Positions 37,195 to 60,962 of a DNA stretch of 64,000 bases are shown here, one piece after another. The position numbers were made by a program, and so were the translations under genes. Source of the stretch: an uncultured archaeon. GTDB taxonomy: Archaea > Altiarchaeota > Altiarchaeia > JAFGQM01. The stretch spans positions 68,715 through 132,714 of the forward strand of contig CAZUDQ010000002.1 of the NCBI GenBank assembly GCA_964619365.1, read 5' to 3'. Positions within the stretch are counted from its first letter, which is position 1; each line of letters starts with the position of its first letter. Below the pieces are notes generated by a model. That model did no database searches. It saw only the letters and a program-made list of their open reading frames with translations, and was not told where the DNA came from.

Positions 37195-37290
37195 GTGCGG
37201 GCGCCGGGATGTTAAGGTGGACACATACCCCAGACTAATGACCTTAAGATAAGGTGCCAGTACTGCATTGCTAAGCAATAGAAAAAGTAA
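37195..37290. repeat. tRNA-Gly 3' duplicate (37195-37210) plus ~80-bp hairpin element
   Basis: gtgcgggcgccgggat repeats 37292-37307; stem ATGTTAAGGT / ACCTTAAGAT with a 22-nt loop. Confidence 0.85.
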
Positions 37291-37292
37291 GG

Positions 37293-37365
37293 TGCGGGCG
37301 CCGGGATTCGAACCCGGGTTCCGAGCTTGGAAAGCTAGAGTGATACCAGACTACACCACATCCGC
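37293..37365 (-). tRNA. tRNA-Gly(TCC), diverged second copy (possible pseudo-tRNA)
   Basis: 4 substitutions relative to 39299-39371, including an A-C mismatch and a U-G wobble in the acceptor stem. Confidence 0.7.
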
Positions 37366-37451
37366 AAGCCTGTATGCTTAGAAAGCGCTTACTTAGAATA
37401 ATTAAGTATAACAGATTTTTAAACAATCTCCCATTCTTTAACAAAACCAAA

Positions 37452-39233
37452 ATGGCTGAAAATACCCCTAAGACTGATGAAACCAAGCCAGTAGAGAAGA
37501 ATAAAAAGGACGATTTCGGAAAAGATCTCGGACCCAAGCTTATCTTCCTCGCTATTGGATTCATATTAGGACTACTTTTGTATTGTGTGATATTTGGATG
37601 TGACTGTGACATTAGAGGGTATGAAGAAATTACCTTTACTGGTGCTGATGGTGAATCTATTATTGTTTCTACTGACGGTGGAACAGCTACGATAACCAAG
37701 AATGGAGTTCCACAAGATTGTGAGTGGAATTGTATTCCTAAGAAAGATGGTGGTGGCGAACCTGGAATAGGACCTGGTGGCGAACCTGGACTTAAGAATG
37801 GTGGTGGAAAACTCCCCCCTGGCAAAACTTGGGACGATTATACTTGTGATGACTTAGAAGGATACCAGTGCAGCCCTGGAACTTGTCCACCGAATTACAA
37901 GTGCGATACTCTTATTTCAAAGACTGAGCCTGCGGCTTACTGTGATTGTGTCCCTGAAAATGGTGGTAATAAAACTCCAGGAGATGCTATGCCTGACTAT
38001 ATAATCCCAAAAGTAGAGTTGGTATGTGGCGAACAATACAATAATATCTCAGTAACCATTAAGAACCAGGGAACCAAAGAAATCCCGCTTAATGCTTGGG
38101 ACATTATGCAAGTTGATTTCTTCACAGACCCAGGCGGACAAAAGTTCCCCGGATCAATACAATTAGACCAAAACGATTTAATACAACTTTGCCCAAATTT
38201 CCTAAAGCCAGGGGAAAGCTGCACTTATAAAGTAGCTATAGGTGGAACCGGGCTTTCAGATCCTTCTGCTTGTGCAGATATATCCGATAATATCTCTGAA
38301 AGTGATGAGAACAATAATTGCAACAATCTCATTAAAGAGTGCCCAATGCCGCCTGATTCATCAGGAAATCTTCCAGATTTCAAAATGACTGATATCGGCG
38401 CTAGTTGTGATGGTGACTATGATGTGCAGACTCATACATACAGTAATGATAAGATATCTTCACTTAGATTCTGGCCAATGAACATGGGCCCCGGTGAAGC
38501 AAATGTTGCATTAAGTGGCAGATTCTCTCTTTTGGTGAATGGAAATATTATTATGGATGATCAAATGGCAGACCTTAATCCATTTTGCCCTGAACTCTTT
38601 AAGGTAATGAACATGAACTGCGAGTTAGACATAATGCAGCTTTATTTTGGCAACACACTGATAGCAAAAATAAAGCATGGTGATACCATAGAAATATGTT
38701 TGGATTACCAAAATGCAGTAGTTGAAGGCGATGAATCCAATAACTGCCTAACTCAGTTAATTAATTGCCCAACTAATGAGGGTGGGCCTGAGCCAGACGG
38801 AACCTGCCAAGGCGATTTTGAAGCAACTGGTTTTTGCGGTGGTGAATGTGAGTTTGAAGGCCACATTGGTTCCTGTGAAGCTATTGATGCTGCATGCCAC
38901 TGTATTGTCCCAGATTCAGGTCCTGGACCAGAACCAGAGCCAGAACCAGAGCCAGGACCAGAGCCAGGACCAGAGTATGTGAATTGTCGAGATGTATATG
39001 CTAACTCTGACATCTGCGCGGGCGATTGTATATTGTCTGATCAGACTGAAGGACAATGCTACTTTGATGGACCGAATGGTTGTTACTGTGCCGAGATCGG
39101 TTATGAACCTCCTGGTGGCAGTGATCCAGAACCAGAGCCTTGTGTGAATGAGGATTATCCATGCAGTGATGATGGTGATTGCTGTTCAGGTCTCAACTGC
39201 TGCTATGGATATTGCACAACAAGAAGCTGCTAA
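37452..39233 (+). CDS. Membrane-anchored Cys-rich surface protein with two CARDB-like domains
   Basis: N-terminal TM; PDYII...TIKNQG...ISESDENNN and PDFKM...VVEGDESNN; PE/PG linker; terminal CC-containing knot. Confidence 0.8.
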   Translation: MAENTPKTDETKPVEKNKKDDFGKDLGPKLIFLAIGFILGLLLYCVIFGCDCDIRGYEEITFTGADGESIIVSTDGGTATITKNGVPQDCEWNCIPKKDGGGEPGIGPGGEPGLKNGGGKLPPGKTWDDYTCDDLEGYQCSPGTCPPNYKCDTLISKTEPAAYCDCVPENGGNKTPGDAMPDYIIPKVELVCGEQYNNISVTIKNQGTKEIPLNAWDIMQVDFFTDPGGQKFPGSIQLDQNDLIQLCPNFLKPGESCTYKVAIGGTGLSDPSACADISDNISESDENNNCNNLIKECPMPPDSSGNLPDFKMTDIGASCDGDYDVQTHTYSNDKISSLRFWPMNMGPGEANVALSGRFSLLVNGNIIMDDQMADLNPFCPELFKVMNMNCELDIMQLYFGNTLIAKIKHGDTIEICLDYQNAVVEGDESNNCLTQLINCPTNEGGPEPDGTCQGDFEATGFCGGECEFEGHIGSCEAIDAACHCIVPDSGPGPEPEPEPEPGPEPGPEYVNCRDVYANSDICAGDCILSDQTEGQCYFDGPNGCYCAEIGYEPPGGSDPEPEPCVNEDYPCSDDGDCCSGLNCCYGYCTTRSC

Positions 39234-39248
39234 GATTTTTCTTAGCAG
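39227..39248 (+). terminator. Hairpin at the end of the CARDB gene
   Basis: CTGCTAAGA-TTTT-TCTTAGCAG 9-bp inverted repeat. Confidence 0.4.
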
Positions 39249-39255
39249 TACTCTT

Positions 39256-39373
39256 TAAGGTGCCAGTACTGCATTGCTAAGCAATAGAAAAAGTAAGGTG
39301 CGGGCGCCGGGATTCGAACCCGGGTTCCGAGCTTGGAAGGCTAGAGTGATACCAGACTACACTACGCCCGCAA
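39256..39373. repeat. 118-bp direct repeat of 37250-37367
   Basis: Offset 2006 bp, 4 mismatches; covers the whole tRNA plus 43 bp of 3' trailer. Confidence 0.92.
39299..39371 (-). tRNA. tRNA-Gly(TCC)
   Basis: GCGGGCG/CGCCCGC acceptor stem, CTTCCAA loop, GGTTCGAATCC. Confidence 0.93.
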
Positions 39374-39419
39374 AAAATATCAAGTTAAAGCGCTTAGTTA
39401 GAACAAAACCATATAAAAA

Positions 39420-40763
39420 TTATGAGCTTGTCTTACTTATCTCACGTCGTAAATAAAACTCAAACCAAAGGAATGCGATAACTGCTGCTATCCAGCCTGA
39501 AATCAACATCGCTATCCAGACACCGCTGATTCCAAGGATTGGCGGAAGTACTAGCGCAAGAGGCAAGAGCAGTACTAGTGAACGCAAGAGTGTTATTGCA
39601 AGAGAAGGCATTCCCCTGCCCATTCCCTGGAATGAAGAACTCATTGTTATACCAACGCCCCACGCGCAGTATGTGAGCGCAATGACTCTGGTGTAGCTTA
39701 TCCCTATTTCAAGGACTGCTGGGTTGCTTGTAAATGTCCCTATGAATATTGGTGCACATATCCAGGCGAGAGCTCCGATTCCAAGACCAAAGATAAAATT
39801 GACGCTGGCGGCAAACCTTGCGACACGAAGTGAATCACGCGGTTTATTTGACCCTTTGAAATAACCGACCATAGCAACAGCTGCCCCACCTAGACCAAGC
39901 ATTGGCATTATAACAAGGGAATCGACCCTAAAGCCTATTGCAAGGCCTGCTATTGCCACGCTTCCAAATGAGACAAGAACAGCGTTCATTATTATCATTG
40001 ACATTGAAAGTCCCATTTGGGCAAATGCCGCGGGGAGACCTATAGTCAATATCTCAAGGGAGGCCTTTTTCTCAAGTAAGAGACCAACTCCTCTTATGTC
40101 AAGCACAGGCCCGTTTCTTTTAAAGTAAATGAAATAAGCAAATAATCCCGCCATGATTATTACCGATATTGTTGTTGCAATAGCAGCACCACTAATCCCC
40201 AAATCCATGTTGTAAATCATTATAGGATCAAGGATTCCGTTAATCACAATACCTATTAGGTGTATTATTAACGGTGTTTTTGTGTTCCCTTCACCAACAA
40301 GAATCCCATTTGCAGCCATTGAGAACATAAGACCTATTCCACAAAGGGCAATAATCCATAAATAATCACTTGCCATAGCCGTGACTGCAGCATCTGCTCC
40401 AAATGCCGCTATAATCGGATAAGCCAGTGGAATGACAACAACCATCATCACAACGCCCATGAGTATTGCAAGAGTCGCCGCGTTTGCCCCGCCGTATGCC
40501 GCCTCTTTTTTCTGACCCGCTCCAAGTTTTCGCGATATCACAGAGGTTGCACCTATTGATAGTCCACCGGCAAATGCTTGGCCGATAAAGACTATTGGGA
40601 ATGCAAGCTGCATTGCTGCAAGAGCTTCGTGCCCTAAGCCTGCAATAAAATAAGTGTCAACTATTATTAAGACAAGCTCTGCCACCATACTCAGGATTAT
40701 AGGTGTTGCAAGTACGAGGAGTCCCTTTCTTGGGTTTTGCATGAGCGAGTCTATTCTATCCAT
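39420..40763 (-). CDS. MATE family efflux transporter
   Basis: 12 TMs, VDTYFIAGLG, GNTKTPL, NGILDP, GISGAAIAT. Confidence 0.92.
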   Translation of the reverse strand: MDRIDSLMQNPRKGLLVLATPIILSMVAELVLIIVDTYFIAGLGHEALAAMQLAFPIVFIGQAFAGGLSIGATSVISRKLGAGQKKEAAYGGANAATLAILMGVVMMVVVIPLAYPIIAAFGADAAVTAMASDYLWIIALCGIGLMFSMAANGILVGEGNTKTPLIIHLIGIVINGILDPIMIYNMDLGISGAAIATTISVIIMAGLFAYFIYFKRNGPVLDIRGVGLLLEKKASLEILTIGLPAAFAQMGLSMSMIIMNAVLVSFGSVAIAGLAIGFRVDSLVIMPMLGLGGAAVAMVGYFKGSNKPRDSLRVARFAASVNFIFGLGIGALAWICAPIFIGTFTSNPAVLEIGISYTRVIALTYCAWGVGITMSSSFQGMGRGMPSLAITLLRSLVLLLPLALVLPPILGISGVWIAMLISGWIAAVIAFLWFEFYLRREISKTSS

Positions 40764-40807
40764 TATAAGGTTGCGGGTAATTTTAAGCTCGCAATAGAAA
40801 AACTAGA

Positions 40808-41377
40808 GTGGATAAAAGCGTATATCCCCCGTCTGAGGACAGTTACTTAATAAAGGAAAGTATAGAAAAATATCTCAAGGCAGCTAGTGTGAAAAAGGCT
40901 CTTGATATGGGTTGTGGCTCAGGAATACTTTCAGTCGCTCTTGGGAATCAAGGTTGTGACACATTAGCCGTAGATATTAATCCAAAGGCGCTAGAAGCAA
41001 CCCTCGCACATGCGAGTCTTGAAGGCGTAGACGATAAAATCAAGGTTCTGGAGTCTGACTTGTTTTCAAACATAGATGAAAAGTTCGACTTGATTGTCTT
41101 TAACACCCCATATGTCCCGACAGATGATTCGGAAACTGATGACTTAGAATCACGGGCATGGGACGGAGGACACGATGGCCTTAGCGTTACAAGAAAGTTT
41201 CTAAAAGAAGCTCCAGTTTGTCTAAACAGGGGCGGTAAGATAATTATTCTTGTGGCGACAAATGACGACAAAGAACCCTCTTTTGAGGGATTTGAACAGA
41301 GTGTCTTAGGCAAAAAATCCTATTTCTTCGAGCGCTTGTGGGTTCTTCTCCTTACTCCACTTCAGCTTCGCCGATGA
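40808..41377 (+). CDS. HemK2/MTQ2 family protein methyltransferase
   Basis: VYPPSEDS, LDMGCGSG, FNTPYVP, WDGGHDG. Confidence 0.9.
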   Translation: MDKSVYPPSEDSYLIKESIEKYLKAASVKKALDMGCGSGILSVALGNQGCDTLAVDINPKALEATLAHASLEGVDDKIKVLESDLFSNIDEKFDLIVFNTPYVPTDDSETDDLESRAWDGGHDGLSVTRKFLKEAPVCLNRGGKIIILVATNDDKEPSFEGFEQSVLGKKSYFFERLWVLLLTPLQLRR

Positions 41378-42587: not shown

Positions 42588-42631
42588 TTTGGGCTTATTG
42601 GCGTAAAGTTAAGGTCTTCTGATTTAAAAAT

Positions 42632-43120
42632 TTATAGATAAACACTCACACGTTCATATTTGTCGAGAAGTTTTGATATCTCGGTATCTGAATGTTTTAG
42701 CTCTTTTATGTACTTCTCATTAAGCTTTTTTGGACAGAGCGCCCCCTTTGCCCCAAGGTCTATTAAATCATTTTTTCCGGCAAGTTGCGCGCGTTTTTTC
42801 CGATAGGCATAACCAAGCGGCGCAAAGACATTCATTGAGATATACTTATCCCCATTTTCAAAGGGCACAAGATAGTCTTTTGCATTTTTATCGCTGGGGT
42901 TTACTTCTTCTAAAAATTCAGAGATTTTTTGTGAAAATAAGTCTTCTTCAAAAAGATAGAGATTTCCTGTTTCTCTGCCCATTAGCGCAGGCCCTTCTAT
43001 TTCGGCAAGCTTCTCACCTATCGCATCAAGCATACTGATTGTATCTAGGTCACCAAGATTTTCTCTCATCTCTGATATTGCAAAGACAAAGGCCTTTGTC
43101 ATTGTTCTTCTGCGAAGCAT
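42632..43120 (-). CDS. Hypothetical protein
   Basis: Co-oriented ORF within the solute operon. Confidence 0.55.
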   Translation of the reverse strand: MLRRRTMTKAFVFAISEMRENLGDLDTISMLDAIGEKLAEIEGPALMGRETGNLYLFEEDLFSQKISEFLEEVNPSDKNAKDYLVPFENGDKYISMNVFAPLGYAYRKKRAQLAGKNDLIDLGAKGALCPKKLNEKYIKELKHSDTEISKLLDKYERVSVYL

Positions 43121-48358: not shown

Positions 48359-49786
48359 ATGGAAAGAAGAGTAATGATTTCAAATGTTTTGGGGTTCACA
48401 ATACTTATTGTGGGTATCATCGTTCTTTGGTCCTACTATGTAGGGTCCACAGAAGATGCGATGACAGAAAAAGCGATAACAAATTTTGAAGAATGTGCAA
48501 ATGCAGGATATCCTATAATGGAGTCTTATCCTGAACAGTGTTGCACATCCGAAGGACAGTGTTTTACAAACGGGAAGCAAAACGTTGAGCCACCTATTGT
48601 TAAACCAATTGGACCAGACCTCCCTATTGCATCTGATGATGAAGTAAAAAGTATCTCAGATTCAATAAACAAATTCAGTTTTGACATGTATGATCAATTA
48701 GCCCCGAGTGGAAAAAACATATTCTACTCCCCTTTTAGCATACACGACGCTCTCACTATGACTTATGAAGGTGCGCGCGGAGAAACCGCAACTGAGATGG
48801 AAAACGTACTCTCTCTCCCTGTCGATAAAGTCAATCTGAATCCGTCATATAAGTCACTTTTAGAATCACTTAAAGGCGATAACACCTTTGATCTTTCAGT
48901 AGCCAATGCAATTTGGCCAGAAAAAGACTACGCGTTCCTTCCAGAATATATCTCAATTGTCGAGGATTATTATCTTGCAGAGACAAAGCCCATGGATTAT
49001 AAGAACGATCCAGCTGGCGCAGTAAAAGAGATAAATGATTGGGCCAAAGAGGAAACAAACGGCAAGATAAAAGACCTGCTCCAGCCAAGTGATGTAAATC
49101 CGATGACGCGCATGGTTCTTACAAATGCCATATATTTCAAGGCTGACTGGATGACTAAGTTTAAAGGTATTGACACCTTGAATATGACCTTTAATACGTG
49201 CCAAGGAAAAACGTCAAAAGTTCCGATGATGCGCATGTGGGACGAGTCCTTCCCTTATACAGAAGGCGAGGGATGGAAAGCAATATCGCTTCCCTATAAA
49301 GGAGACAAGACAAATATGCTAATAATCCTGCCTGATGACATGTCAGCCTTTGAAGCTGGACTAGATGAAGCAAAATTCAATGAAATCAAAACTAGCCTTT
49401 CAAATACACCGCTAGATGCAATCATGATACCAAAATTCAAGCTTGAAACTGAATACAGGCTTTCAGATGTTTTAAAAGCGATGGGTATGCCCCTAGCATT
49501 TACTTTTGGCCCCGCAGACTTCTCAGGAATGGATGGAACACGGATGCTTTATATAAGCGATGTAGTACACAAAGCTTTTGTCGATGTTGCAGAAAACGGT
49601 ACTGAGGCGGCTGCAGCAACTGCGGTTATAATGGCGGAGGGAATGGCAATGCCCGCCCCCCCAAAACCCAAATTTATAGCAGATAAGCCTTTTATCTTTG
49701 CCATAGTTGATGACAACTCAGGAGCAATACTCTTCCTTGGGAGGATTGTTGATCCGAAGGGCGAGAATACTCTTGAAAATTGTTAA
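48359..49786 (+). CDS. Membrane-anchored serpin
   Basis: NIFYSPFSI, LTNAIYFK, GTEAAAAT hinge, FIADKPF, LFLGRI. Confidence 0.95.
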   Translation: MERRVMISNVLGFTILIVGIIVLWSYYVGSTEDAMTEKAITNFEECANAGYPIMESYPEQCCTSEGQCFTNGKQNVEPPIVKPIGPDLPIASDDEVKSISDSINKFSFDMYDQLAPSGKNIFYSPFSIHDALTMTYEGARGETATEMENVLSLPVDKVNLNPSYKSLLESLKGDNTFDLSVANAIWPEKDYAFLPEYISIVEDYYLAETKPMDYKNDPAGAVKEINDWAKEETNGKIKDLLQPSDVNPMTRMVLTNAIYFKADWMTKFKGIDTLNMTFNTCQGKTSKVPMMRMWDESFPYTEGEGWKAISLPYKGDKTNMLIILPDDMSAFEAGLDEAKFNEIKTSLSNTPLDAIMIPKFKLETEYRLSDVLKAMGMPLAFTFGPADFSGMDGTRMLYISDVVHKAFVDVAENGTEAAAATAVIMAEGMAMPAPPKPKFIADKPFIFAIVDDNSGAILFLGRIVDPKGENTLENC

Positions 49787-49793
49787 AAACAAA

Positions 49794-51377
49794 ATGGAAA
49801 AAAATCAAACAATAATCTTAGGTATAGTTATATTAGTTGTGATTGCAGTAGCAATACTTCTTCTTCTGCCCCAAAACACAGTGCCCGACAACAAAGCGAC
49901 CATCTCGGATTTTGAGACTTGCGCTGCAGCAGGCTTACCTATATTAGAATCATATCCAGAGCAGTGTTGCGTACCTAATGGGGGTCCCTGTTATACTAAT
50001 GAGAAGCAAAAAGTTGAGTTACCAATTGTTAAACCCCAAATACCAACAGCCACAACAGAGGATGTTAAGGATATAACAGAGTCCATAAACAAATTCAGCT
50101 TCATTTTGTATAGCGAGTTGTCAAAAGATGGTGATAATGTATTTTATTCGCCTTTTAGCATACATGACGCACTTAGCATGACTTACGAAGGCGCGCACGG
50201 AGAAACCGCAACTGAGATGGAAAACGTACTTTCTTTGCCAACTGACGCGACTGTACGACAAGAAGGTTATCAGACTCTTCTCAGCTCGTTTAATCCTACA
50301 GGCGAGGCTTACAACCTTTCGATTGCAAACGCGCTTTGGCCTGAAGAGACTTATCCTTTCCTTCCAGAGTACATAAGTACCATTGAAGACTACTATTTTG
50401 CAGGGACGCAAGGTATGGATTACATAAATGACTCCGAGGGTTCAAGAAAGATAATAAACTCATGGGTCGAGGATAAGACAAACGAGAAGATAAAAAACAT
50501 CCTTGCATCAGGTGATGTCAATTCACTAACGCGCATGGTTCTTACAAACGCAATATATTTTAAGGGCAACTGGGAAACTTCTTTTGACCCGGAAAACACG
50601 CACAACAATACCTTTATCACTTGTCCAGGGGTAGTCTCTGATGCGCCGATGATGTCGATGTTTGATGAGGTTAATTTCCCTTACACAGAAGGTGACACTT
50701 GGCAGGCAATAAGCCTTCCATATGAAGGGGACAGGCTTAGTATGGTGATAATACTACCTGATGACATAACTGCTTTTGAAGCAGAGCTTGACGAGTCAAA
50801 GTTTGCCGATATCTCAAATCAGCTTGTTCCAACGGATTTAGATTATCTTGAGATACCAAAATTCAAGATTGAGACAAGATATGGTTTAGGTGGGGTGCTT
50901 TCTTCCCTAGGTATGCCTCTTGCTTTCTCAATGGCAGCAGACTTTTCGGGAATGGATGGCACAAAAGACCTTTATATAAGTAAGGTTATCCATAAAGCTT
51001 TTGTTGATGTCAACGAAGAAGGCACTGAGGCTGCAGCGGCAACTGTTGTTGTCATGAATCTAAAGGCTGTAATGGAGCCTGAACCAAACCCAGTCTTTAT
51101 TGCAGACCACCCATTTATCTTTGCGATACTTGATGACGAGTCCGGAGCAATTCTTTTCCTTGGGCGTATTGTTGACCCTGTGGGAGAACATACACTTAAG
51201 GCCTGTGATATAATGCCAGATACAGGAGACTTCCATACCTGCAGCGACACCGAAAAGACAATTGATATCTGCACGATGCAGTACGACCCGGTCTGTGGCA
51301 CTGACGGAGAAACATATGGCAACGGATGCTCGGCTTGCGCTGCCCAGGTGGATGGCTGGTTCCCTGGCGAATGCTAA
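49794..51377 (+). CDS. Membrane-anchored serpin with C-terminal Kazal domain
   Basis: Serpin motifs plus CTMQYDPVCGTDGETYGNGCSAC. Confidence 0.95.
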   Translation: MEKNQTIILGIVILVVIAVAILLLLPQNTVPDNKATISDFETCAAAGLPILESYPEQCCVPNGGPCYTNEKQKVELPIVKPQIPTATTEDVKDITESINKFSFILYSELSKDGDNVFYSPFSIHDALSMTYEGAHGETATEMENVLSLPTDATVRQEGYQTLLSSFNPTGEAYNLSIANALWPEETYPFLPEYISTIEDYYFAGTQGMDYINDSEGSRKIINSWVEDKTNEKIKNILASGDVNSLTRMVLTNAIYFKGNWETSFDPENTHNNTFITCPGVVSDAPMMSMFDEVNFPYTEGDTWQAISLPYEGDRLSMVIILPDDITAFEAELDESKFADISNQLVPTDLDYLEIPKFKIETRYGLGGVLSSLGMPLAFSMAADFSGMDGTKDLYISKVIHKAFVDVNEEGTEAAAATVVVMNLKAVMEPEPNPVFIADHPFIFAILDDESGAILFLGRIVDPVGEHTLKACDIMPDTGDFHTCSDTEKTIDICTMQYDPVCGTDGETYGNGCSACAAQVDGWFPGEC

Positions 51378-53033: not shown

Positions 53034-55019
53034 TTAGCTAAAACCCAAAATAAGCCCTCCTTGATATATCAAAAATGCAGCTATCCAGGCAATCCCTATG
53101 CTATATGTCGCAGAAAATGCCATCCACTTCCAAGAACCAGTTTCCTTTTTGATGACACTAAGTGTCGCAATGCATGGAACATAAAGAAGTGTAAATACCA
53201 TAAGTGAAAGGGAGCTAAGGGGTGTGAATGCAGCATCTTCTTGCAGACTTAAGGAAAGTCCCTTAGTTTCGTCATTACTATAAAGGACGCCAAGGGCACT
53301 TATTACAAGCTCCTTTGCAACAAATCCGAATATTAGTGCGACAACCATCTTCCAGTCAAAACCAAGCGGAGCAAAAATAGGTTCTAGGGTCTGACCGATT
53401 ACACCTACATAACTATCTGCCCCACCATAAGTTACACCTTCTGGGAAGCTTGCAAGGAACCAGATTATAATCGCGCCGATTACGATTATCGGTCCGGCTT
53501 TTTTGATGTAAGTAAAGCCAAGGTTCCAGGCGTGTAAAAAAGACGTCTTAAATGTGGGTCTCCTGTAAATGGGAAGCTCCATGATAAATGGTGCGGCCTC
53601 GCCCTTAAAGACAAATTTCCTAAGAAGAAGGGCCGAAAGTATTGCAACAACGATGCCCAGGACATATAAGCTAAAGATTACAGTTCCTGCTTCGTGCCCA
53701 AAAAAGGCACCTGCAAGAAGGATAAAGACTGGAAGGCGTGCACCACAACTGATAAATGGAGTTACAAGAATAGTTATGAATCTGTCTTTCTCATCATCGA
53801 TTGTTCGTGTGGCCATTATGGCAGGCACATTGCATCCAATCCCCATGAGCATCGGGACAAATGACTTTCCCTGAAGGCCAAGCTTATACATTAACCTGTC
53901 CATTACAAAGGCCGCGCGCGACAGATATCCACTGTCCTCAAGGACTGAAAGCATAAGAAACATTATAAATATCGGCGGCACAAAGACAAGGACGAAGCCA
54001 AGCCCCCCGATTATTCCATTACCTAGAAGGGAACCAAAAAGTCCCGGGATGGCGTCAAGAACAAAGACTGATAAATCTGAGAAAAAGGTCCCTACGATCT
54101 CCATAAATGGCGTTGAAAGGGTGAAAGTTAGCTCAAAAGCGGCCCAGATTATTATCAAAAATATGGGTATCCCTAAATACTTATTGGTAACTACGCGGTC
54201 TATCATATCGCTTACAGTAGTTTTGCCCGCACATATCGTGCATACTTGAGGTAGGAACAAGGATATCGCAGAGTAGCGTTTATCAACCATCTGGGCTTCA
54301 TATTTTTCAGAATCAATACCCTTTAAGAATTTTTTGACTTCGGGCCAAGCGGGGCTACTAGCGACATTTTCAATTGCATTTTTGTCGCCCTCAAGAAGTC
54401 TTGCCGAAAGCCATCGCAAAGGTATCTTTTTTGAAAGTTCTGCGTCTTCCCCAAGGACTTTTTCCAAGGACAAAATCTTTCTTTCGATTCTTGAACCGTA
54501 GCTTATCTCATGGATATGTTGCTTTGTTTTTGATACCTCAGTTATAGTTTCAAGAAGTTTTTGGGTTCCTTTATCTTCACTGGCAACAGTTTTAACTACT
54601 GGTACACCTAAAAATTCAGACAGGCGCGACACATCAATTTTATCACCCCTGGTTTCTGCCATATCAGACATGTTTAAAGCGATAACTACTTTGCTTCCAA
54701 GTTCAAGGATCTGGGTTGTAAGGTACAAATTGCGCTTTAGGTTTGTTGCATCAATTACATGCACGACGACATCGGGTTTTTCATTTATAAGGTAGTCCCT
54801 GGCAACAATCTCATCCTTTGAATAAGCTGCAAGACCATAAGTTCCTGGGAGATCGACAAATTCAATCTCATACCCTTCGTATTTTTTCTTTCCACTAAGC
54901 TTCTCGACAGTGACTCCCGGCCAGTTGCCCACCCTTTGCCGACTCCCAACAAGGCGGTTAAATACTGATGTTTTTCCGACATTGGGGTTTCCTGCAAGGG
55001 CTACAGTTATTTTTTCCAC
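53034..55019 (-). CDS. feoB: Ferrous iron transporter B
   Basis: GNPNVGKT, NWPGVTVE, DLPGTY, LEDSGY, PFISCGARLP. Confidence 0.97.
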   Translation of the reverse strand: MEKITVALAGNPNVGKTSVFNRLVGSRQRVGNWPGVTVEKLSGKKKYEGYEIEFVDLPGTYGLAAYSKDEIVARDYLINEKPDVVVHVIDATNLKRNLYLTTQILELGSKVVIALNMSDMAETRGDKIDVSRLSEFLGVPVVKTVASEDKGTQKLLETITEVSKTKQHIHEISYGSRIERKILSLEKVLGEDAELSKKIPLRWLSARLLEGDKNAIENVASSPAWPEVKKFLKGIDSEKYEAQMVDKRYSAISLFLPQVCTICAGKTTVSDMIDRVVTNKYLGIPIFLIIIWAAFELTFTLSTPFMEIVGTFFSDLSVFVLDAIPGLFGSLLGNGIIGGLGFVLVFVPPIFIMFLMLSVLEDSGYLSRAAFVMDRLMYKLGLQGKSFVPMLMGIGCNVPAIMATRTIDDEKDRFITILVTPFISCGARLPVFILLAGAFFGHEAGTVIFSLYVLGIVVAILSALLLRKFVFKGEAAPFIMELPIYRRPTFKTSFLHAWNLGFTYIKKAGPIIVIGAIIIWFLASFPEGVTYGGADSYVGVIGQTLEPIFAPLGFDWKMVVALIFGFVAKELVISALGVLYSNDETKGLSLSLQEDAAFTPLSSLSLMVFTLLYVPCIATLSVIKKETGSWKWMAFSATYSIGIAWIAAFLIYQGGLILGFS

Positions 55020-55020
55020 T

Positions 55021-55275
55021 TCACTCTTTTATGAGAATGCCTTCTGCAAGGCGCTTTGATATGCAGTATTTGGCGCCGTTTATCTCTATTATTAATGCGC
55101 GGCCTTGGGTGCTGATTAACTTGACAGGCAAGCCCTCCTTAACTCCCAGGTCCATAAGTCGTCTTCTTGAGCCGCCACAGGTCTGAATATCGAGTATAAC
55201 TACTTCCTCTCCAAGCGGAGCTAAAAGAAGGCTTTTACCTTGCGCTTGTCCACATCTGTGCCGACATCTCCTCAT
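55021..55275 (-). CDS. feoA: Ferrous iron transport protein A
   Basis: RRLMDLGVKEG, upstream of feoB. Confidence 0.88.
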   Translation of the reverse strand: MRRCRHRCGQAQGKSLLLAPLGEEVVILDIQTCGGSRRRLMDLGVKEGLPVKLISTQGRALIIEINGAKYCISKRLAEGILIKE

Positions 55276-55309
55276 TTTCTGGTATCTTAGAACCTGGCAA
55301 TATAAAAAC

Positions 55310-55327
55310 TTTTCGGTATACCGAAAA
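55310..55327. promoter_or_regulatory. Probable DtxR-family operator
   Basis: Perfect 18-bp palindrome TTTTCGGTATACCGAAAA 35 bp upstream of feoA. Confidence 0.7.
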
Positions 55328-55375
55328 CTCTTAATTGATTTTTATTCCAAGGCCCAAAATAATTAACAGAAAAAA

Positions 55376-55633
55376 ATGGTACAGACAAAGGAGCAAAAGG
55401 TCCTAAGGCGAGACGTTATGAATCAGATTTCATTACTCCTTACTAGCGCTTTTGCCTTAGTTGCCGCCCTTGCTTGGAATGATGCCATAAAAGCAGGATT
55501 TAGCGAGCTATTTGGCACACAAACTGCGGTTTATGCGATGATAATCTATGCAGTGGTTGTTACCATCATTGCTGTTGTCCTAATCATTATGTTTGCGCGC
55601 TCAGGCTTTAAGGCAAAGGACATTGACGACTAA
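55376..55633 (+). CDS. DUF5654-like membrane protein
   Basis: AFALVAALAWNDAIK, YAVVVTIIAV. Confidence 0.8.
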   Translation: MVQTKEQKVLRRDVMNQISLLLTSAFALVAALAWNDAIKAGFSELFGTQTAVYAMIIYAVVVTIIAVVLIIMFARSGFKAKDIDD

Positions 55634-55665
55634 TCTGGACTATTGGATTTTAATTATAAGTTATA

Positions 55666-55920
55666 ATGGCAAGCATTAAACGCAAGTGGGATTTACTCTC
55701 AGAAGAAAAAAGAAGTGAGAGTATTAGGGAACTGACTAGTTTTTTTAAAACACAAAGAGATGAAGAAATCGGAATGATTGCTGCTGAATCTATACTGGAT
55801 CATTTTTTGCAAAGTGTTGGAATAGAGCTTTATAACAAAGGCGTGGAGGACTCCATAACTTTGTTAAGAGGACGTTTTGAAACCTTGGAACTGGATATGG
55901 ATTCCCTATTGAAAAAATAA
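55666..55920 (+). CDS. DUF2164 family protein
   Basis: RDEEIGMIAAE...YNKGVED. Confidence 0.8.
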   Translation: MASIKRKWDLLSEEKRSESIRELTSFFKTQRDEEIGMIAAESILDHFLQSVGIELYNKGVEDSITLLRGRFETLELDMDSLLKK

Positions 55921-55951
55921 TCCAAGGCCCCTACCTAGAACATGAAAATGA

Positions 55952-55998
55952 GCGGACCCGCCGGGACGCTGAGGTGGATGTTTCTTCAATACCAATGA
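55952..55998. repeat. tRNA-Arg 3' duplicate plus half of the hairpin element (distal island boundary)
   Basis: gcggacccgccggga identical to 60888-60902; whole 47 bp matches 60795-60841 with 4 mismatches. Confidence 0.88.
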
Positions 55999-56044
55999 TA
56001 AAGATTGCTTTTGGAAAATGAAGAATTGCTATGCGATAAAAGGA

Positions 56045-56788
56045 TTATAATTTGTCTATCTCTTTTCTAATGCTGTTATACCAATCATAAATTATTTCCT
56101 TCATTCTAGTCTTGATTTCATCCCTTTCGCCTACTTTATACAAATAGGTGTAACCGCCCCTGGGTAGGTTCTTTCGCAGTCTGTTAACAAGTTGCTTTTT
56201 GAGAAGACTTTTCATAGCTTTCTGGATAGTTGTTCTTTCTAGGTTCATCCCCTTTGCGATTTTTGATATCGTTGTCTCACCTTCATTTTTCAACAAGAAA
56301 ATCAAGACATTATACTCAGTTTTATTCAAATCGAATGAACACTTGATTAACTCCTCATGTGTTATCTTCTTGCATGCGAAGGTAACATCCTTGATGGCTG
56401 AGTTATTTCCCAAGCCGTCAGCCACGAAACATGCGTTAGAGACTGCCTTGATATTGTTCTTTTTGCAAAAGTCTATGGCATTTTTCGATTCGGATCCAGG
56501 TTGCATCCAAACATTATCTACCCCGATGTTCTTACATTCAATCACAACCTTTTCTGTGGCTTTTGGGGGAACCGTAGTTATGACCACATTTGGTTTCTTG
56601 GGCAATGACTCTAAATTAGGGTAACATACAGTATTACCTATTTTTCGGTGTTTTGGATTTATTGGATAAACATTAAAGCCTAATGATTTTAGCGTCTGGA
56701 ATATTCTTGAGCCCCACTTGTTGGGATTGGACGAGACACCGACTACTGCGATTGTGTTGTTTCTGTCCAGAAAATCGTTAGGATTCAT
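56045..56788 (-). CDS. CoA-binding domain fused to a TrmB-like HTH regulator
   Basis: IAVVGVS, VYPINP, VWMQPG, NAC; then FACKKI...LIKCSFDLNKTE, LERTTIQKA, GGYTYLY. Confidence 0.8.
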   Translation of the reverse strand: MNPNDFLDRNNTIAVVGVSSNPNKWGSRIFQTLKSLGFNVYPINPKHRKIGNTVCYPNLESLPKKPNVVITTVPPKATEKVVIECKNIGVDNVWMQPGSESKNAIDFCKKNNIKAVSNACFVADGLGNNSAIKDVTFACKKITHEELIKCSFDLNKTEYNVLIFLLKNEGETTISKIAKGMNLERTTIQKAMKSLLKKQLVNRLRKNLPRGGYTYLYKVGERDEIKTRMKEIIYDWYNSIRKEIDKL

Positions 56789-57104
56789 TCTTGCCACCAA
56801 AAAGCCTACTGAAAAAGGATTTTTTCAATCCAAGCATTGTTTCAATATCATCTCGTAGATTGTCTTCGCTGGGGGCGCCACTTTTTCTCTTAATCTCTTT
56901 CCCTTCATTATCAAGGAACAATATTGTGGGTAGTCTTGTTATACCATATTTTGAGGACAGCTCTTTGCCTTCAGCAGTTTTTATTCTTACCTTTTTGTAT
57001 GACAAGCCTTGCTCACTATATGCCGGTGCGACCCTTTGGACTGCGCGTTCCGCTTTGGGGCAGTGTGGGCAGTGTGACGAGACAAAGACCAGTATTTTCA
57101 TCAT
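56778..57104 (-). CDS. Thioredoxin family protein
   Basis: CPHC, LPT. Confidence 0.85.
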   Translation of the reverse strand: MMKILVFVSSHCPHCPKAERAVQRVAPAYSEQGLSYKKVRIKTAEGKELSSKYGITRLPTILFLDNEGKEIKRKSGAPSEDNLRDDIETMLGLKKSFFSRLFGGKNES

Positions 57105-57365
57105 TCAGCTTTCCTTGCTTACAAATAAAAAACAATGGCAATGACCCTGCCCCTCTATCTCTTTCTTATGATAAGCACAGGGACACACGTTCTTATCATT
57201 GTGTTCCACTCTGCATGGGCAATATCTCTTCCCAAATATTTTCTCGTTTTCAAGTAAGCCAGTAACAAGCATCTCGATTATCTTCTGGTCGGGATTTAAC
57301 TTAAAGCCGTTCTCTTGTGCATACTTCTCATAGTCTTCAATAGTCCCTTTGATCTTTTCATCCAT
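57105..57365 (-). CDS. Ferredoxin-thioredoxin reductase catalytic subunit
   Basis: YCPCR...CPC...CHC.LF. Confidence 0.92.
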   Translation of the reverse strand: MDEKIKGTIEDYEKYAQENGFKLNPDQKIIEMLVTGLLENEKIFGKRYCPCRVEHNDKNVCPCAYHKKEIEGQGHCHCFLFVSKES

Positions 57366-57366
57366 A

Positions 57367-57546
57367 TTAATCTCTCAAGGTAATCGCATTATTTGGGCAG
57401 GCAGAAACACACGCCCCACAACTCTTACAGTTTTCTGGGTGCTTGACAACGACCTTCCCAGATATTATTTCCAAAACTCCGAAAGGGCATGCGTTAACGC
57501 AAATACCGCATCCAGCACAGATACTTTGTTTTATTTTTGGTGCCAT
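57367..57546 (-). CDS. 2[4Fe-4S] ferredoxin (59 aa, not in ORF track)
   Basis: Manual translation MAPKIKQSICAGCGICVNACPFG...NCKSCGACVSACPNNAITLRD*. Confidence 0.92.
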   Translation of the reverse strand: MAPKIKQSICAGCGICVNACPFGVLEIISGKVVVKHPENCKSCGACVSACPNNAITLRD

Positions 57547-57569
57547 TTTACACTAGTTTTTTATCCATT

Positions 57570-58538
57570 TTAATCTTCTTCAGGGATACAAAGACCTTTC
57601 CTCATTATTTCTTTGCTGGTTTTATAAACCAGATAGACGATTATTGAGGTGAGGATAGTCAAAAGAAGAATTGACAGGATTTCAAAAAATTGGATTTTTG
57701 TTTCATGATACATCAAGAGTGTCGCTATCGTTATTGCCGCCATTGGAAAGCTATAAGCCCACCAGGATAGATAAAATTTTATTTTTGAAAACAAGGTTAC
57801 TTGGGCAAAGACAAGCAACAGCAAGAATAAAGAGGTATAATATAATATTCTTGCGAAAGGGTCTATTTCGCCAACTAATTTTACATAAGCAATAAAGGCT
57901 ATCGCAGGCGGTGCAAATAATATAAAGAAAGTAGGGATTAACTTATCTGCAATTGGGTGGTGGAATATTATCCTATTGAATACAATTGTGAATAATACTG
58001 CCCACATGATAATACCAATGCTAAAAAAGAACCATGAGAGTTCTATGTAACCTAATTGGACGCCCGCAATCGGGATTATAACATTTCCCACTATAGGTAT
58101 GAACCAGGATGGGTTAAGATGCTCGAATTCAAATTTTGAATGCCTTAACCACATTGAGGTGATGGCTATGGAGAATATAAATTGGAGTATTACGCCGATT
58201 ATCCATAGATTTCTTGCAAGCAACAGATTCATATCCAAATAGATAATACTCAATATCAAGAATATTTTTGCGAATATCGGAAAAAAGTTTATCTTGATTG
58301 GATGGTTTATCTCTTTTCGCACCTCATCCGGAAATTTAAGTAATTTAAGGAAATAAAGCCCAGTGATTAGTATGAATATCAGGATTGTGGCATATAAAAG
58401 GTAATTGTAACCCTGGAATGGCAAATTAAGGATTACATCGGCCTTTTTTAGTGCGAGTGTAAATCCGACTAAACCTAAAGGTATCGCCAAAAAACTTATT
58501 GAAAAATGTTTTAGTCTACTAATACCCGCATCAGTCAT
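57570..58538 (-). CDS. SLAC1/TehA (TDT) anion channel
   Basis: HPIKINFFP, PSWFIPIVG, FILFAPP, SWWAYSFP. Confidence 0.92.
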   Translation of the reverse strand: MTDAGISRLKHFSISFLAIPLGLVGFTLALKKADVILNLPFQGYNYLLYATILIFILITGLYFLKLLKFPDEVRKEINHPIKINFFPIFAKIFLILSIIYLDMNLLLARNLWIIGVILQFIFSIAITSMWLRHSKFEFEHLNPSWFIPIVGNVIIPIAGVQLGYIELSWFFFSIGIIMWAVLFTIVFNRIIFHHPIADKLIPTFFILFAPPAIAFIAYVKLVGEIDPFARILYYTSLFLLLLVFAQVTLFSKIKFYLSWWAYSFPMAAITIATLLMYHETKIQFFEILSILLLTILTSIIVYLVYKTSKEIMRKGLCIPEED

Positions 58539-59325
58539 CCTTAACCTTTTTTATATACGGACATTTATCCACACCTATCTTATCGTCTAAAACCGCTCTT
58601 ATGAACTCATTGCACGACTTGAATCCACATTTGCCGCAGTTCATATTGGGCACCCTAGCTTTCAACTCCTTGCCTCGTAAATATTGGTTTAAGGTTTCCT
58701 GTGCGTCAATAGTCTTATTACCATAGCAATAACCACATACTGCTGAAGGCATGGTGTGTTTTAGTGTGAGCTTTCCCTTTATCTCTGGGCTATTTTGTAT
58801 CATCTCCGCTAGATCTATTGCCCCTTCTCCGGTTAATCCATTTGCCTCGATTATTGATGCAGTTTTATTTATCCCTATTACACGAGTCCTGAAGATTTCT
58901 CTCTCAGCCTGAGAGATTAAATCTCCTTTAGTTACTGCAACTACATCCGCTTGAGTTAGAAGCGGACCGTAATTTGAAGGCTTTCCCGATAATATGTTGA
59001 GGATGTTGATTGCGAGACCTTCATTTACATAAGGGGAGCATCTTAGGCAAAGCCCTGCAGTCTCTATGAATATAATGTCTTTGTTCTTATGTTCTTCAAT
59101 AATTTTTGGTATCTCCAATGCTGCATAATGGTCTGGGCAGACATCACCAGAAATTTTTTTTCCAGTACTTATGCCAAATTTTTCTTTGATTAAAGTAGCA
59201 TCGTCTGTATCAAGGACATCGAATTTTGTATAATGGATGTTTAAGTCTTTCAACTCTTCTATTACATGTTTGATTACACTGGTCTTCCCGCTTCCAGGTG
59301 TCCCCCCAAATATAACTAGCTTCAT
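58531..59325 (-). CDS. HypB/UreG-like (G3E) GTPase with C-terminal Fe-S domain
   Basis: GTPGSGKT, CPDH, ETAGLCLRCSP, TKGD, CGYCYG, NCGKCGFKSC...CPY. Confidence 0.85.
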   Translation of the reverse strand: MKLVIFGGTPGSGKTSVIKHVIEELKDLNIHYTKFDVLDTDDATLIKEKFGISTGKKISGDVCPDHYAALEIPKIIEEHKNKDIIFIETAGLCLRCSPYVNEGLAINILNILSGKPSNYGPLLTQADVVAVTKGDLISQAEREIFRTRVIGINKTASIIEANGLTGEGAIDLAEMIQNSPEIKGKLTLKHTMPSAVCGYCYGNKTIDAQETLNQYLRGKELKARVPNMNCGKCGFKSCNEFIRAVLDDKIGVDKCPYIKKVKDD

Positions 59326-60134
59326 TTTTTGGTCTCCAAAGGCGTACATATTAGTTTCAATTCTTCAACTTGGTTGCCGTTCCTGACTTCCTCACGTACG
59401 TCCAACATGTAATTATTTATCCAAGAGAGGTAATTTGCAATCCCTTTTTCTCTAATTGAGGTATAAATTATTTTACTCAGTCCTCCATTCTTCATAACAA
59501 GTCGCTTATCTGTGTCTAGAGCAAGTATTGGGTCATGCGTCACCAAGAAAACTATTTTCCCTTTCTCGACAAGAAGCTCGAGCGCTTCCTTAATATGTAT
59601 TCCAGCATTCTCTATTTCATCAATCAGTATAATCGGTGATTCGCTGACGTAGGCAAGGTCTGCGACCATTAAGGCTCTTGATTGCCCACCTGAGAGAGCT
59701 AACAGGTTCATTGAGCCCTTGATTTTTTCGCCAGTTACAGTATTTGCATCCTCAAGTATTCTACTAATCAGCTTTTCAGTCTCAGCGTTAGTTCGGTGCT
59801 TGCCCCTAGTCTTTATATGTGTTTTCAGGAAGTTGTGTACGCTGTCATCTGTCATAAAATTCATGTGCTGGGTAAGGTAACCGATTATTTTTTTGGTTGA
59901 ATCAAGCTTAATCTCCTGTGCCGCAGGCTTATCGTTTATGAGAATTTTCCTTTTAGTTTTAGTTTCACCCTGAGAAAGTTTCTCAATGTCATAAAGCAAT
60001 TGGCTTTTGCCAGAACCTGTTGGACCGACTACCCCAATTTTCTGACCGACAAGTATCTCTACTTTGTTGAAGGTCTCTTTTACACCCTCCTTATTATTAC
60101 CTGCGAAAATTGTAACCTTTTTTATAGATTCCAT
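59322..60134 (-). CDS. Stand-alone ABC-type ATPase
   Basis: GPTGSGKS, LSGGQSRALM, IDEIENAGI, VTHDP. Confidence 0.88.
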   Translation of the reverse strand: MESIKKVTIFAGNNKEGVKETFNKVEILVGQKIGVVGPTGSGKSQLLYDIEKLSQGETKTKRKILINDKPAAQEIKLDSTKKIIGYLTQHMNFMTDDSVHNFLKTHIKTRGKHRTNAETEKLISRILEDANTVTGEKIKGSMNLLALSGGQSRALMVADLAYVSESPIILIDEIENAGIHIKEALELLVEKGKIVFLVTHDPILALDTDKRLVMKNGGLSKIIYTSIREKGIANYLSWINNYMLDVREEVRNGNQVEELKLICTPLETKK

Positions 60135-60151
60135 GAGTGTATTATCCCAAA

Positions 60152-60562
60152 TTATTCCTCAGTATGTATATTTTTGCTTAACCACGCCCTAACATTCGAT
60201 TCTGGGAGTGCTCCTATGAACTCGTCAACGACTTTCCCATCCTTGAACATCTTTACAGAGGGTATGCTCATAATCCCATATTTTTGGCTTACTACCTGAC
60301 CCTCATCGACATTCAACTTCGCCAGGATAAATTTCCCTTTGTACTCATCCGCAAGATTTTCTAAGGTGGGTCCAAGCCTCAAACAAGGTGCGCACCATGT
60401 CGCCCAGAAGTCAACGACCACGGGAACCTTCTCTGACTGCCTGATTACGTTCTCATCAAAATCATTATCCTTAACCTCAATTTTCGTTTCCATTTTTTCT
60501 CTGTTGAACCTTTCAGCCAATTCATTTAGCTTCTTTTTCCTAATCTCTTCAAGTTCGTCCAT
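60152..60562 (-). CDS. trxA: Thioredoxin
   Basis: VDFWATWCAPC, SIPSV; N-terminal DELEEIRKKK extension. Confidence 0.92.
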   Translation of the reverse strand: MDELEEIRKKKLNELAERFNREKMETKIEVKDNDFDENVIRQSEKVPVVVDFWATWCAPCLRLGPTLENLADEYKGKFILAKLNVDEGQVVSQKYGIMSIPSVKMFKDGKVVDEFIGALPESNVRAWLSKNIHTEE

Positions 60563-60572
60563 AGTATCGTTT

Positions 60573-60608
60573 GTGACCAAAAGAATCACTAGTGGCTAAG
60601 TTTATCAC
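60573..60608. promoter_or_regulatory. Tandem GTG-N11-CAC sites upstream of the redox operon
   Basis: GTGACCAAAAGAATCAC (60573-60589) and GTGGCTAAGTTTATCAC (60592-60608). Confidence 0.45.
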
Positions 60609-60793
60609 TACTAATATAAAAAGCTTTATGGAGTCGTGATTTTGTATTAGCAAAAAATCACTAATGCCCATATATACCTTATAGTATCCGATATACTACC
60701 AAAAATAGATATCCAAGACTATTGGATCTTGGTATCTAAGATACAAAGTCCGTGATTCTCGCCTGGTTGATGCTGAATTTTAGAATAAGTAAG

Positions 60794-60886
60794 GACAGAC
60801 CCGCTGGGACGCTGAAGTGGATGTTTCTTCAATACCAATGACCTTAGCGTAGGTGGGAACGCTAATGCTAACATAATGAAAAACTA
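60794..60886. repeat. Degenerate tRNA-Arg 3' duplicate plus ~80-bp hairpin element
   Basis: 13/16 match to the tRNA end; stem ACGCTGAAGT / ACCTTAGCGT with a 22-nt loop. Confidence 0.85.
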
Positions 60887-60888
60887 GG

Positions 60889-60962
60889 CGGACCCGCCGG
60901 GATTCGAACCCGGGTCACAGGATCCGAAGTCCTGTAGTATGTCCTGGCTAACCTACGGGCCC
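60889..60962 (-). tRNA. tRNA-Arg(TCG)
   Basis: GGGCCCG/CGGGTCC acceptor stem, CAGGA-CTTCGGA-TCCTG anticodon arm, GGTTCGAATCC. Confidence 0.94.

Follow-up and report, generated by a model that had tools for sequence, protein, structure and literature searches.

Palindromic units behind the tRNA genes of an uncultured salt-lake archaeon: candidate integrative mini-elements

We analyzed a stretch of 64,000 nucleotides (nt) of contig CAZUDQ010000002.1 (assembly GCA_964619365.1; hereafter the window) from the genome of an uncultured salt-lake archaeon, in which the transfer RNA (tRNA) genes for Gly(TCC) and Arg(TCG) are each followed by a unit of about 95 nt closed by a copy of the 3' end of the same tRNA. 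Such units stand behind 12 of the 34 tRNA genes of this genome (G000). The key to their architecture is an inverted copy of the tRNA end which, together with a conserved hairpin and the direct copy, makes up one long palindrome. We give about an even chance to the reading that the units are non-autonomous, T-loop-specific, site-specific integrative mini-elements of tRNA genes. The copies in G000 look partly decayed. At the level of abstracts, no description of such units was met in the literature.

The G000 genome comprises 1.2 Mb on 17 contigs and is 85% complete. Its tRNA genes were called with ARAGORN and Rfam, and all positions given below are window coordinates unless a contig is named. 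A covariance model of the hairpin (R1) was built from 14 copies in G000. The genomes considered besides G000 were seven others of the family, including the congeneric G001, and those of other families among 100 relatives.

Anatomy of the unit

The original prediction, made from the window, described a hairpin behind both tRNAs followed by a duplicate of the tRNA 3' end. All of its sequence features lie where it had placed them, including the periods of 97 and 93 nt, a half copy of the element, and a repeat at the Gly locus that breaks at the foot of the hairpin. Absent from its description was the inverted copy. Both tRNAs are on the minus strand, and the units therefore sit 3' (downstream) of them; in tRNA orientation the order at both loci is tRNA, T-rich start, CTTAGC-type palindrome, hairpin, and a tail copy of about 16 bases. 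The inverted copy lies just 5' of the hairpin and runs from about tRNA position 64 to 2–3 bases past the tRNA end, as is clear in GC-richer relatives. In the Gly spacer it occupies 37253-37263 and is imperfect, with 8 of 11 bases complementary.

The duplicate that was said to close the element is identical to the tRNA in 16 of 16 bases at the Gly locus and forms a perfect 15-nt tail in the half copy. It is also present in the Arg unit (about 60793-60810), but there it is degenerate, with three to four differences from tRNA-Arg. Similarly, the proposed 10-bp stems do covary but are less perfect than had been claimed. At Gly, nine of ten pairs form between 37209-37218 and 37241-37250, around a 22-nt loop (37219-37240), and at Arg the arms 60809-60818 and 60841-60850, around the loop 60819-60840, give eight Watson-Crick pairs, one G-T pair and one mismatch. 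On the sense strand the hairpin top has a fixed CAT start and TCC end at both loci.

In the predicted fold, the inverted and direct copies form a lower stem, followed by a TT/CCC internal loop, the 10-bp stem and a structured top, with energies of about -25 to -47 kcal/mol in most copies from relatives and weaker values in some of them and in G000. Two lines of evidence support this structure. In 44 of 61 units, the fit of the inverted copy to its own tail exceeds the 95th percentile of the cross pairs (n = 3336). The stem also covaries: among the 14 copies from G000, two-sided changes occur at six of the ten outer-stem pairs, a result matched by none of 500 shuffles, and across 82 aligned matches compensatory changes are found at all eight predicted pairs.

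The boundaries of the tail copies are informative as well. In 50 units, the identity between successive tail copies is 0.18 at tRNA position 58, 0.70 at position 59 and 0.94-1.00 at positions 60-70, and on the right side it declines from 0.88 at position 73 to 0.68 at 74 and about 0.4 from 78 onward. A sharp left edge combined with a fading right edge would be expected if the copy had to complete a working tRNA, and does not suit a target duplication of fixed length.

The mismatches in the stems point to the palindrome being a feature of the DNA rather than of an RNA, because there is no excess of G·U. In 61 units the upper stem holds 517 Watson-Crick pairs, 13 G·U, 21 A·C and 59 other cells, and the lower stem 532 Watson-Crick pairs, 13 G·U read in sense, 21 G·U read in antisense and 50 transversion mismatches. 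The acceptor stems of tRNAs from the same genomes, used as a control, gave 576 Watson-Crick pairs, 46 G·U and one A·C; this control is biased, since its register was picked for best pairing, but the gap to the unit stems is still large. The antisense fold is slightly more stable than the sense fold in 41 of 61 units, to which we attach little weight. As for the spacer, its TTAGC(G) motif resembles an AAWTTAGCGC motif that ends about 19–22 nt before many tRNA 5' ends. Motifs of the latter type occur upstream of tRNAs genome-wide (for example at 39372-39410 and 37366-37405) and are probably promoters.

Two heterologous arrays indicate what the movable unit consists of. In G007, a Thr-type tRNA and its unit are followed by a Gly-GCC-type tail with Gly-type spacer, inverted copy and hairpin, after which the Thr-type tail appears. 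Over 76 nt this Gly-type sequence shares 94.7% identity with a unit from the Gly-GCC array of the same genome, and the similarity stops inside ATCCC. In an Ala array of G003, the Ala tail is preceded by a Gly-type tail, the trailer of the Gly gene, an inverted copy of Gly type and a hairpin, in that order. Both arrays fit a movable unit of tail copy, spacer, inverted copy and hairpin that is joined in where a hairpin foot meets position 59. Tandem copies are 89-99% identical overall, the Val units of G002 reaching 99%.

Distribution in the genome, the family and beyond

The claim that one tRNA-anchored element is common to several isotypes was borne out when the 100 nt downstream of all 34 tRNAs of G000 were inspected. 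Units follow Ala-GGC, Gly-TCC, Gly-GCC, Arg-TCG, Arg-TCT, Ser-GGA, Ser-TGA, Gln-CTG, Val-GAC, Glu-TTC, Lys-TTT and Thr-GGT, with tandem units at Gln, Ser-TGA and Arg-TCT. R1 gave 15 strong matches in G000, each of which immediately follows a tRNA or a preceding unit; the model also picked up the half copy, one weak match and, at Arg-TCT, a second unit that is degenerate. A copy of the last 14 nt of the tRNA, with up to two mismatches, occurs within 200 nt downstream of 8 of the 34 tRNAs and upstream of none.

Copies are thus found at other tRNAs, and also in relatives, so that the prediction did not fail for want of further copies. R1 matches were obtained in six of seven other family genomes, behind tRNAs and closed by the tail of the tRNA concerned, and the conserved hairpin stands behind at least 20 tRNA species in seven genomes. 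The congeneric G001 has a downstream tail copy at 15 of 24 tRNAs and a degenerate unit at three more. Between these two genomes, units at His, Ile-GAT, Asp and Pro-TGG are confined to G001 and the unit at Lys-TTT to G000. Weak R1 matches, with no tRNA within 1.5 kb, occurred in 2 of 21 genomes of family f5 (G031 and G052), and no R1 match was obtained in the other families among the 100 relatives.

The architecture itself appears to be class-wide, with lineage-specific hairpins, although the sample is small (52 tRNAs, ten genomes). In a test that was independent of the hairpin and covered four other families, a copy of the 3' 13 nt was found within 300 nt downstream of 15 of these tRNAs and upstream of none. 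A compact form occurs in f5 at three of three tRNAs of G018 and at one tRNA of G031. It has an inverted copy at +34 to +38, a short hairpin of A-run, stem and T-run that differs from R1, and a direct copy at +68 to +77, and its junction lies in the T-loop too.

Scanning genome contigs for the hairpin pattern gave 13 loci, of which six, all on contigs labeled "uncultured archaeon", were confirmed by R1; the remaining seven were bacterial and were taken as chance. In metagenomes the pattern occurred at 16 loci, nine of them strongly confirmed, with an ARAGORN tRNA adjoining in 3 of the 11 submitted. Three hairpin patterns run on viral contigs gave 2, 9 and 0 loci, but R1, at E up to 0.01, confirmed none of them. 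A fresh unit from locus L015 had no match in plasmid or phage collections.

Two further observations in G000 concern contig ends and decay. Contig C8 (53395-53696) ends within the tRNA-Ser(TGA) array, and the end of C14 (11724-11761) starts with the same unit; this array probably has more copies than were assembled. An intron-bearing tRNA-Met (C1 207733-207865) is followed by sequence similar to the 5' half of the hairpin alone, possibly a decayed unit.

Proposed mechanism, alternatives and related systems

According to the mini-element reading, the movable unit would start at tRNA position 59 and comprise the tail copy (59-73 and a few bases), about 25-30 nt of spacer, the inverted copy and the conserved covarying hairpin. 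It would insert into a tRNA gene between positions 58 and 59/60, whereupon its own copy of the 3' end would complete the tRNA and the old tail would be displaced to the far side. In a single-stranded or circular form, the inverted and direct copies might pair across the junction with the hairpin on top, and this pairing would rebuild a duplex image of the target, by analogy with attC and the attP of phage CTX. Insertion at 58/59 with replacement of the tail would account for the match of each unit to its own tRNA, for the sharp left and fading right edges of identity, and for the stacking of units in arrays. A foreign Gly-type unit would survive only at the distal junction, because the tRNA body is untouched there.

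Several results weigh against this reading and should be kept in mind. The original observation that the window holds no recombinase was confirmed and extends to the assembled genome: in G000 there was no match to PF00589, Cas1, RVT_1, Y1_Tnp, Resolvase, IS110 DEDD or Transposase_20, and TnpB gave sub-threshold matches alone. No enzyme family is common to all unit-bearing genomes (PF00589 in 2 of 5 relatives, Y1_Tnp in 4 of 8). The contigs gave no sign of excised circles, of empty sites or of polymorphism between strains. The inverted repeat fits the distal copy best in 19 cases, the proximal copy in 15 and neither in four. The unit boundaries rest on the two heterologous arrays, and since the Gly-type cores share 5–8 nt with the host core, ectopic recombination at microhomology could suffice there. 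In G000 the hairpin top (about 7%) and the tail copies (about 11%) are about equally diverged, so that neither selection nor decay is demonstrated. Finally, the likeness of the spacer to the upstream tRNA motif would also suit a small transcription unit.

The enzyme searches can be stated more closely. PF00589 was not found in G000, G001, G004, G006, G009, G018 or G031 (80-92% complete), and one open reading frame (ORF) of this family, 269-276 amino acids (aa) long, is present in each of G007, G008 and G010. The lack of any PF00589 or Xer-type recombinase would be unusual for archaea, if real. The units are tracked neither by PF00589 nor by Y1_Tnp. Near Y1 transposase genes R1 gave nothing at E below 0.08, and the inverted repeats at the ends of these insertion sequences (IS) are unrelated to the units. 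No IS110 recombinase (DEDD plus Transposase_20) exceeded the cut-off in eight family genomes; a weak IS110-like match near the Lys unit proved to be a DEAD-box helicase. The search for Y2_Tnp (Helitron/IS91-type) matched none of eight genomes, but its control matched nowhere either, so this search is uninformative.

Ordinary integrative elements do occur in the family, at tRNA-Thr in G002 (L080/L081, C38 18208-29303) and at tRNA-Ser in G007 (L083, C6 946-10250). Each has a tyrosine integrase right behind the tRNA, repeated arm motifs of the "cagtcttg" type, and a distal repeat that begins at T-loop position 55. Some inserts inside the arrays of relatives are remnants of such elements with their different attachment-site (att) anatomy; one of about 0.8 kb with two small ORFs lies within a unit array of G007 (L014, C91). 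It could be hypothesized that the units themselves are products of ordinary tyrosine integrases, that is, miniature cis-mobilizable remnants left or moved by such elements. Direct repeats from the T-loop to the tRNA end, which the 50-unit profile displays, are the classical footprint of T-loop-targeting integrases, as reportedly described by Williams (2002). The freshest tandems and one heterologous array are also found in integrase-bearing genomes (G002 and G007). However, the repeats of the ordinary elements begin at 55, with arm motifs and without hairpin or inverted copy, and the units are therefore not their att sites. PF00589 was not found within the repeats or elsewhere in G000, G001, G004 and G006 (80-87% complete), which nevertheless have 4–15 R1 matches each, nor in G018 with its compact units, and random deletion would not yield some 60 units of one length with one hairpin. 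We consider this origin unlikely. The same holds for a small structured or cis-acting RNA, a transcription unit or tRNA trailer acting in tRNA processing, termination or regulation, which the original prediction had kept as an option. Such an RNA would fit the covarying hairpin, the TTAGC-type motif like that upstream of tRNA genes, the T-rich runs after the tRNA and after each tail copy, the terminator-like look of the central f5 hairpin, and the class-wide architecture. It is disfavored by the mismatch spectrum, which lacks the G·U excess of tRNA stems, and by Rfam 15, where matches at E up to 1 were limited to tRNA and to weak ones of tmRNA type. Moreover, presence at the same tRNA varies between congeneric genomes, tandem and heterologous arrays are hard to square with a dedicated function, and the long hairpin takes the discriminator and trailer bases into its pairing, which the acceptor end of a tRNA does not.

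The original prediction likened the units to cassette sites. The likeness holds for the architecture, but uptake of cassettes is exceptional, given that 12 of the 15 strong copies hold a spacer of about 40 nt alone. If the units nevertheless were an integron-like capture platform, those without cargo would represent empty cassettes, and filled cassettes would be seen in the inserts at tRNA-Tyr, tRNA-Gly and tRNA-Arg. The parallel to attI, core site and inverse core site (excerpts of PMC2727003 and PMC5027507) speaks for this, as do the boundaries of the three window inserts, all formed by tail copies and two of them closed by an inverted-copy or hairpin structure, and the patchy occurrence of the inserted genes among relatives. 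On the other side, G000 has neither an integron integrase nor a PF00589 match, the inverted copy and one of the stem arms are missing from the Arg insert, the Gly insert is closed by an entire second tRNA gene that has an upstream motif of its own, the Tyr site is without the conserved hairpin, and long-range tail copies occur at three loci only in the genome. A platform of this kind seems distinctly unlikely to us, and a very low probability is given to the absence of any dedicated mechanism, where template switching or slippage at tRNA 3' ends would be spread by unequal crossing-over or gene conversion. The failure to find an enzyme would agree with the latter, as would the identity of tandem copies and the near-identical units of tRNAs that share a tail (Ser-GGA/Ser-TGA 94%, Ala-TGC/Ala-GGC 95.6%). 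It does not explain one conserved hairpin behind so many tRNA species, a junction that always falls in the T-loop, or Gly-type units within Thr and Ala arrays whose flanking hairpins are unlike theirs.

Under the mini-element reading, the closest likeness is to attC sites of integrons. Both are palindromic sites whose outer arms are an inverse core and a core that matches the platform site, with the crossover at the hairpin foot, units arranged head to tail behind one anchor, and stems that vary in sequence while structure and unpaired features (here the TT/CCC internal loop and the TCC bulge) are conserved. An inverted copy specific to the unit's own tRNA was found in 44 of 61 units, and the long hairpin is predicted in most copies from relatives. 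Unlike in integrons, the anchor is a tRNA T-loop and not attI, the core has 15–16 tRNA-specific nt instead of a 7-nt consensus, and the central hairpin is conserved in sequence within the family. In addition, most units carry no gene, where integron cassettes would each have a promoterless ORF, and no IntI-type recombinase accompanies the platform, as none of ten insert ORFs encodes one. Phage CTX, once integrated, is flanked by its target on either side and has an inverted copy of it within. Its attP(+) is a folded single-strand site that host Xer recombinases use; it contains two imperfect copies of the chromosomal target in inverted orientation, and the hairpin that they form imitates the target duplex (excerpt of PMC3089051). 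CTX differs from the units in its size, about 7 kb, and in its target, which is dif and not a tRNA; of the six family genomes tested, four, G000 included, gave no Xer-type recombinase.

In tRNA-targeting tyrosine-integrase elements, too, the tail is replaced by the element's copy, the old tail becomes the distal repeat, and arrays grow by accretion, but the units are only about 95 nt long, encode no integrase and contain a hairpin along with an inverted copy, and the true elements in relatives differ in junction and arms. The palindrome-associated transposable elements of IS200/IS605 and the repetitive extragenic palindromes (REP) served by RAYT are small non-autonomous DNA hairpins that are read single-stranded, their target pairing with an internal guide. 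In being small, non-autonomous and built around DNA hairpins the units would resemble them. Those elements leave no direct repeat, however, and Y1 transposase, present in four of eight family genomes, was not found in G000. Nor do the units look like miniature inverted-repeat elements of the DDE type: the T-rich first bases and the last bases at the hairpin foot are not inverted repeats, and the right edge of the repeat is not fixed as in a target duplication of fixed length (DDE families were not searched).

Some narrower ideas were considered and set aside. An intron in the T-loop (a 58/59 bulge-helix-bulge) seems a poor fit, as the tRNA is complete without splicing and, judged by eye in five copies, the 3' arm of the hairpin does not vary with the T-loop sequence (TTCGAAT vs TTCAAAT). 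Against tRNA-primed reverse transcription that halts at the A58 methylation site, the copies carry the genomic trailer and not CCA, the inverted copy ends near position 64, and G000 gave no match to RVT_1. A kink-turn, C/D box or H/ACA RNA was dismissed since no GA pairs or box motifs were seen by eye and Rfam gave no match, a small peptide since no frame is conserved, and a casposon-like duplication since there are no terminal inverted repeats and no Cas1 (PF01867, 0 matches in G000).

A wider reading would hold that the whole class uses hairpin-dependent, site-specific and probably single-strand recombination, with the T-loop as attI, cassettes of tail and inverted image, a recombinase outside the known tyrosine, serine, HUH, DEDD and Cas1 families, and occasional gene capture as at Tyr, Gly and Arg. 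We regard this as rather unlikely. If the mini-element reading itself is true, a third to two thirds of the tRNA genes in these small genomes would be occupied by a previously undescribed miniature element, whose spare tail solves the problem of insertion into an essential gene and whose palindrome mimics the target in the manner of integron and CTX sites. Recombination by folded hairpins would then extend to archaea and to tRNA targets, and would point to an enzyme yet to be found. The units also break assemblies, as at the end of C8, can mislead calls of tRNA introns and genes, and point out hot spots of insertion, which help to follow gene flow among uncultured lineages.

Larger inserts and other features of the loci

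Three larger inserts flanked by tRNA sequences lie in the window, and the positions of their parts are collected in the table. The original prediction took inserts of this kind as cargo bounded by tRNA duplications. The tail copies are indeed there, but the junctions are irregular at all three loci: the Arg insert has a truncated hairpin, the Gly insert a whole second tRNA gene, and the Tyr insert no conserved hairpin. No recombinase domains were found in the three inserts. The anchor is thus used for larger DNA too, but such inserts are rare and irregular, and gene capture is weakly supported.

Table. Features of the Tyr, Gly and Arg loci in the window
Feature	Position	Strand	Remarks
Tyr hairpin, 7 bp	34558-34585 (approximate)	-	inverted copy abutting direct copy, positions 58-73
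tRNA-Tyr(GTA), intron-bearing	35634-35750	-	proximal end of third tRNA-flanked insert
Gly unit, distal direct copy	37195-37210	-	equals tRNA-Gly positions 59-74, 16/16 identical
Gly unit, conserved hairpin	37209-37250	-	10-bp stem, 22-nt top; R1 53.6 bits
Gly unit, spacer	37253-37290	-	T-rich start, small CTTAGC palindrome, inverted tail copy
tRNA-Gly(TCC) copy 1	37291-37365	-	ARAGORN; supplies, with its 3' end, the proximal core of the Gly unit
Gly insert between tRNA-Gly copies	37366-39255	+	1.9 kb, one ORF 37374-39233
tRNA-Gly(TCC) copy 2 and 41 nt of common spacer	39256-39371	-	tRNA 39297-39371, perfect acceptor stem
Truncated unit end	55952-55998	-	loop and 3' stem arm, then tRNA-Arg tail; R1 E-value 0.001
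Arg insert	55999-60792	-	4.8 kb, seven minus-strand ORFs, GC 0.35-0.41
Arg unit	60793-60886	-	spacer, inverted copy 60852-60862, hairpin 60809-60850; R1 56.6 bits
tRNA-Arg(TCG)	60887-60962	-	ARAGORN and Rfam

At the Gly locus, 118 nt (37250-37367 and 39256-39373) are repeated with 97% identity, and the repeat ends exactly at the hairpin foot. The upstream motif is present at both tRNA copies. Copy 1, the downstream one, scores 52.7 bits with Rfam vs 60.4 bits for copy 2; it is probably the older copy and decaying, judging by an A5-C68 mismatch in its acceptor stem and two base states that it has in common with the G001 orthologue. The ORF between the copies encodes a CARDB domain, Glu-Pro repeats and a Cys-rich end. 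A 12-nt periodic repeat that codes for Glu-Pro is found in it at 38925-38977 and 39123-39139.

The Arg insert is flanked by the full unit on one side and by the truncated unit with its perfect tail on the other. The half copy differs from the full Arg hairpin in 2 of 44 nt and breaks at the border of loop and stem; its tail is probably the original tRNA-Arg tail. The ORFs of the insert encode a CoA-binding/TrmB regulator, a thioredoxin-like protein, a ferredoxin-thioredoxin reductase beta subunit, a SLAC1/TehA channel, a CobW-like ATPase with an Fe-S motif, an ABC ATPase and a thioredoxin. A homologue of TehA was not found in the congeneric G001 and lies away from any tRNA in G006. Both ends of the insert are spanned without differences by contigs of run X1 (55000-56681 and 60293-60987), which is possibly the sample from which G000 was assembled and hence not independent proof of the assembly. 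In a comparison of contigs only, no joint skips any unit or the Arg insert.

The hairpin behind tRNA-Tyr lies 1.06 kb downstream of the tRNA, and an ORF for a GMP-synthase C-domain (34594-35559) lies between the two. Orthologues of this domain in five relatives are in no case within 1.5 kb of tRNA-Tyr or its tail copy. Near-exact tail copies in the genome are restricted to the local sites, apart from one stray Arg-type copy. The latter (C8, about 5596, plus strand) matches 15 nt of the tRNA-Arg(TCG) tail with one mismatch, has no ARAGORN tRNA near it, and could belong to a tRNA-Arg gene whose intron prevented its detection, or else be an orphan.

A second palindromic family was seen in arrays behind tRNAs of relatives and not in G000. 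Its members, of about 58 nt, have two hairpins side by side that a CACGA...TCGTG helix closes. The family lies between positions 59 and 60 of distal tail copies. Its loci are L098 (G001 Ile-TAT), L111 (G001 Thr-GGT), L094, L112, L037 and L031:1170-1250, and it also occurs inside the long intron of tRNA-Gly(TCC) of G001. Elsewhere in the window (48359-51377), two adjacent paralogous genes (ORFs of 475 and 556 aa) form a tandem duplication of 1.42 kb with 73-83% DNA identity.

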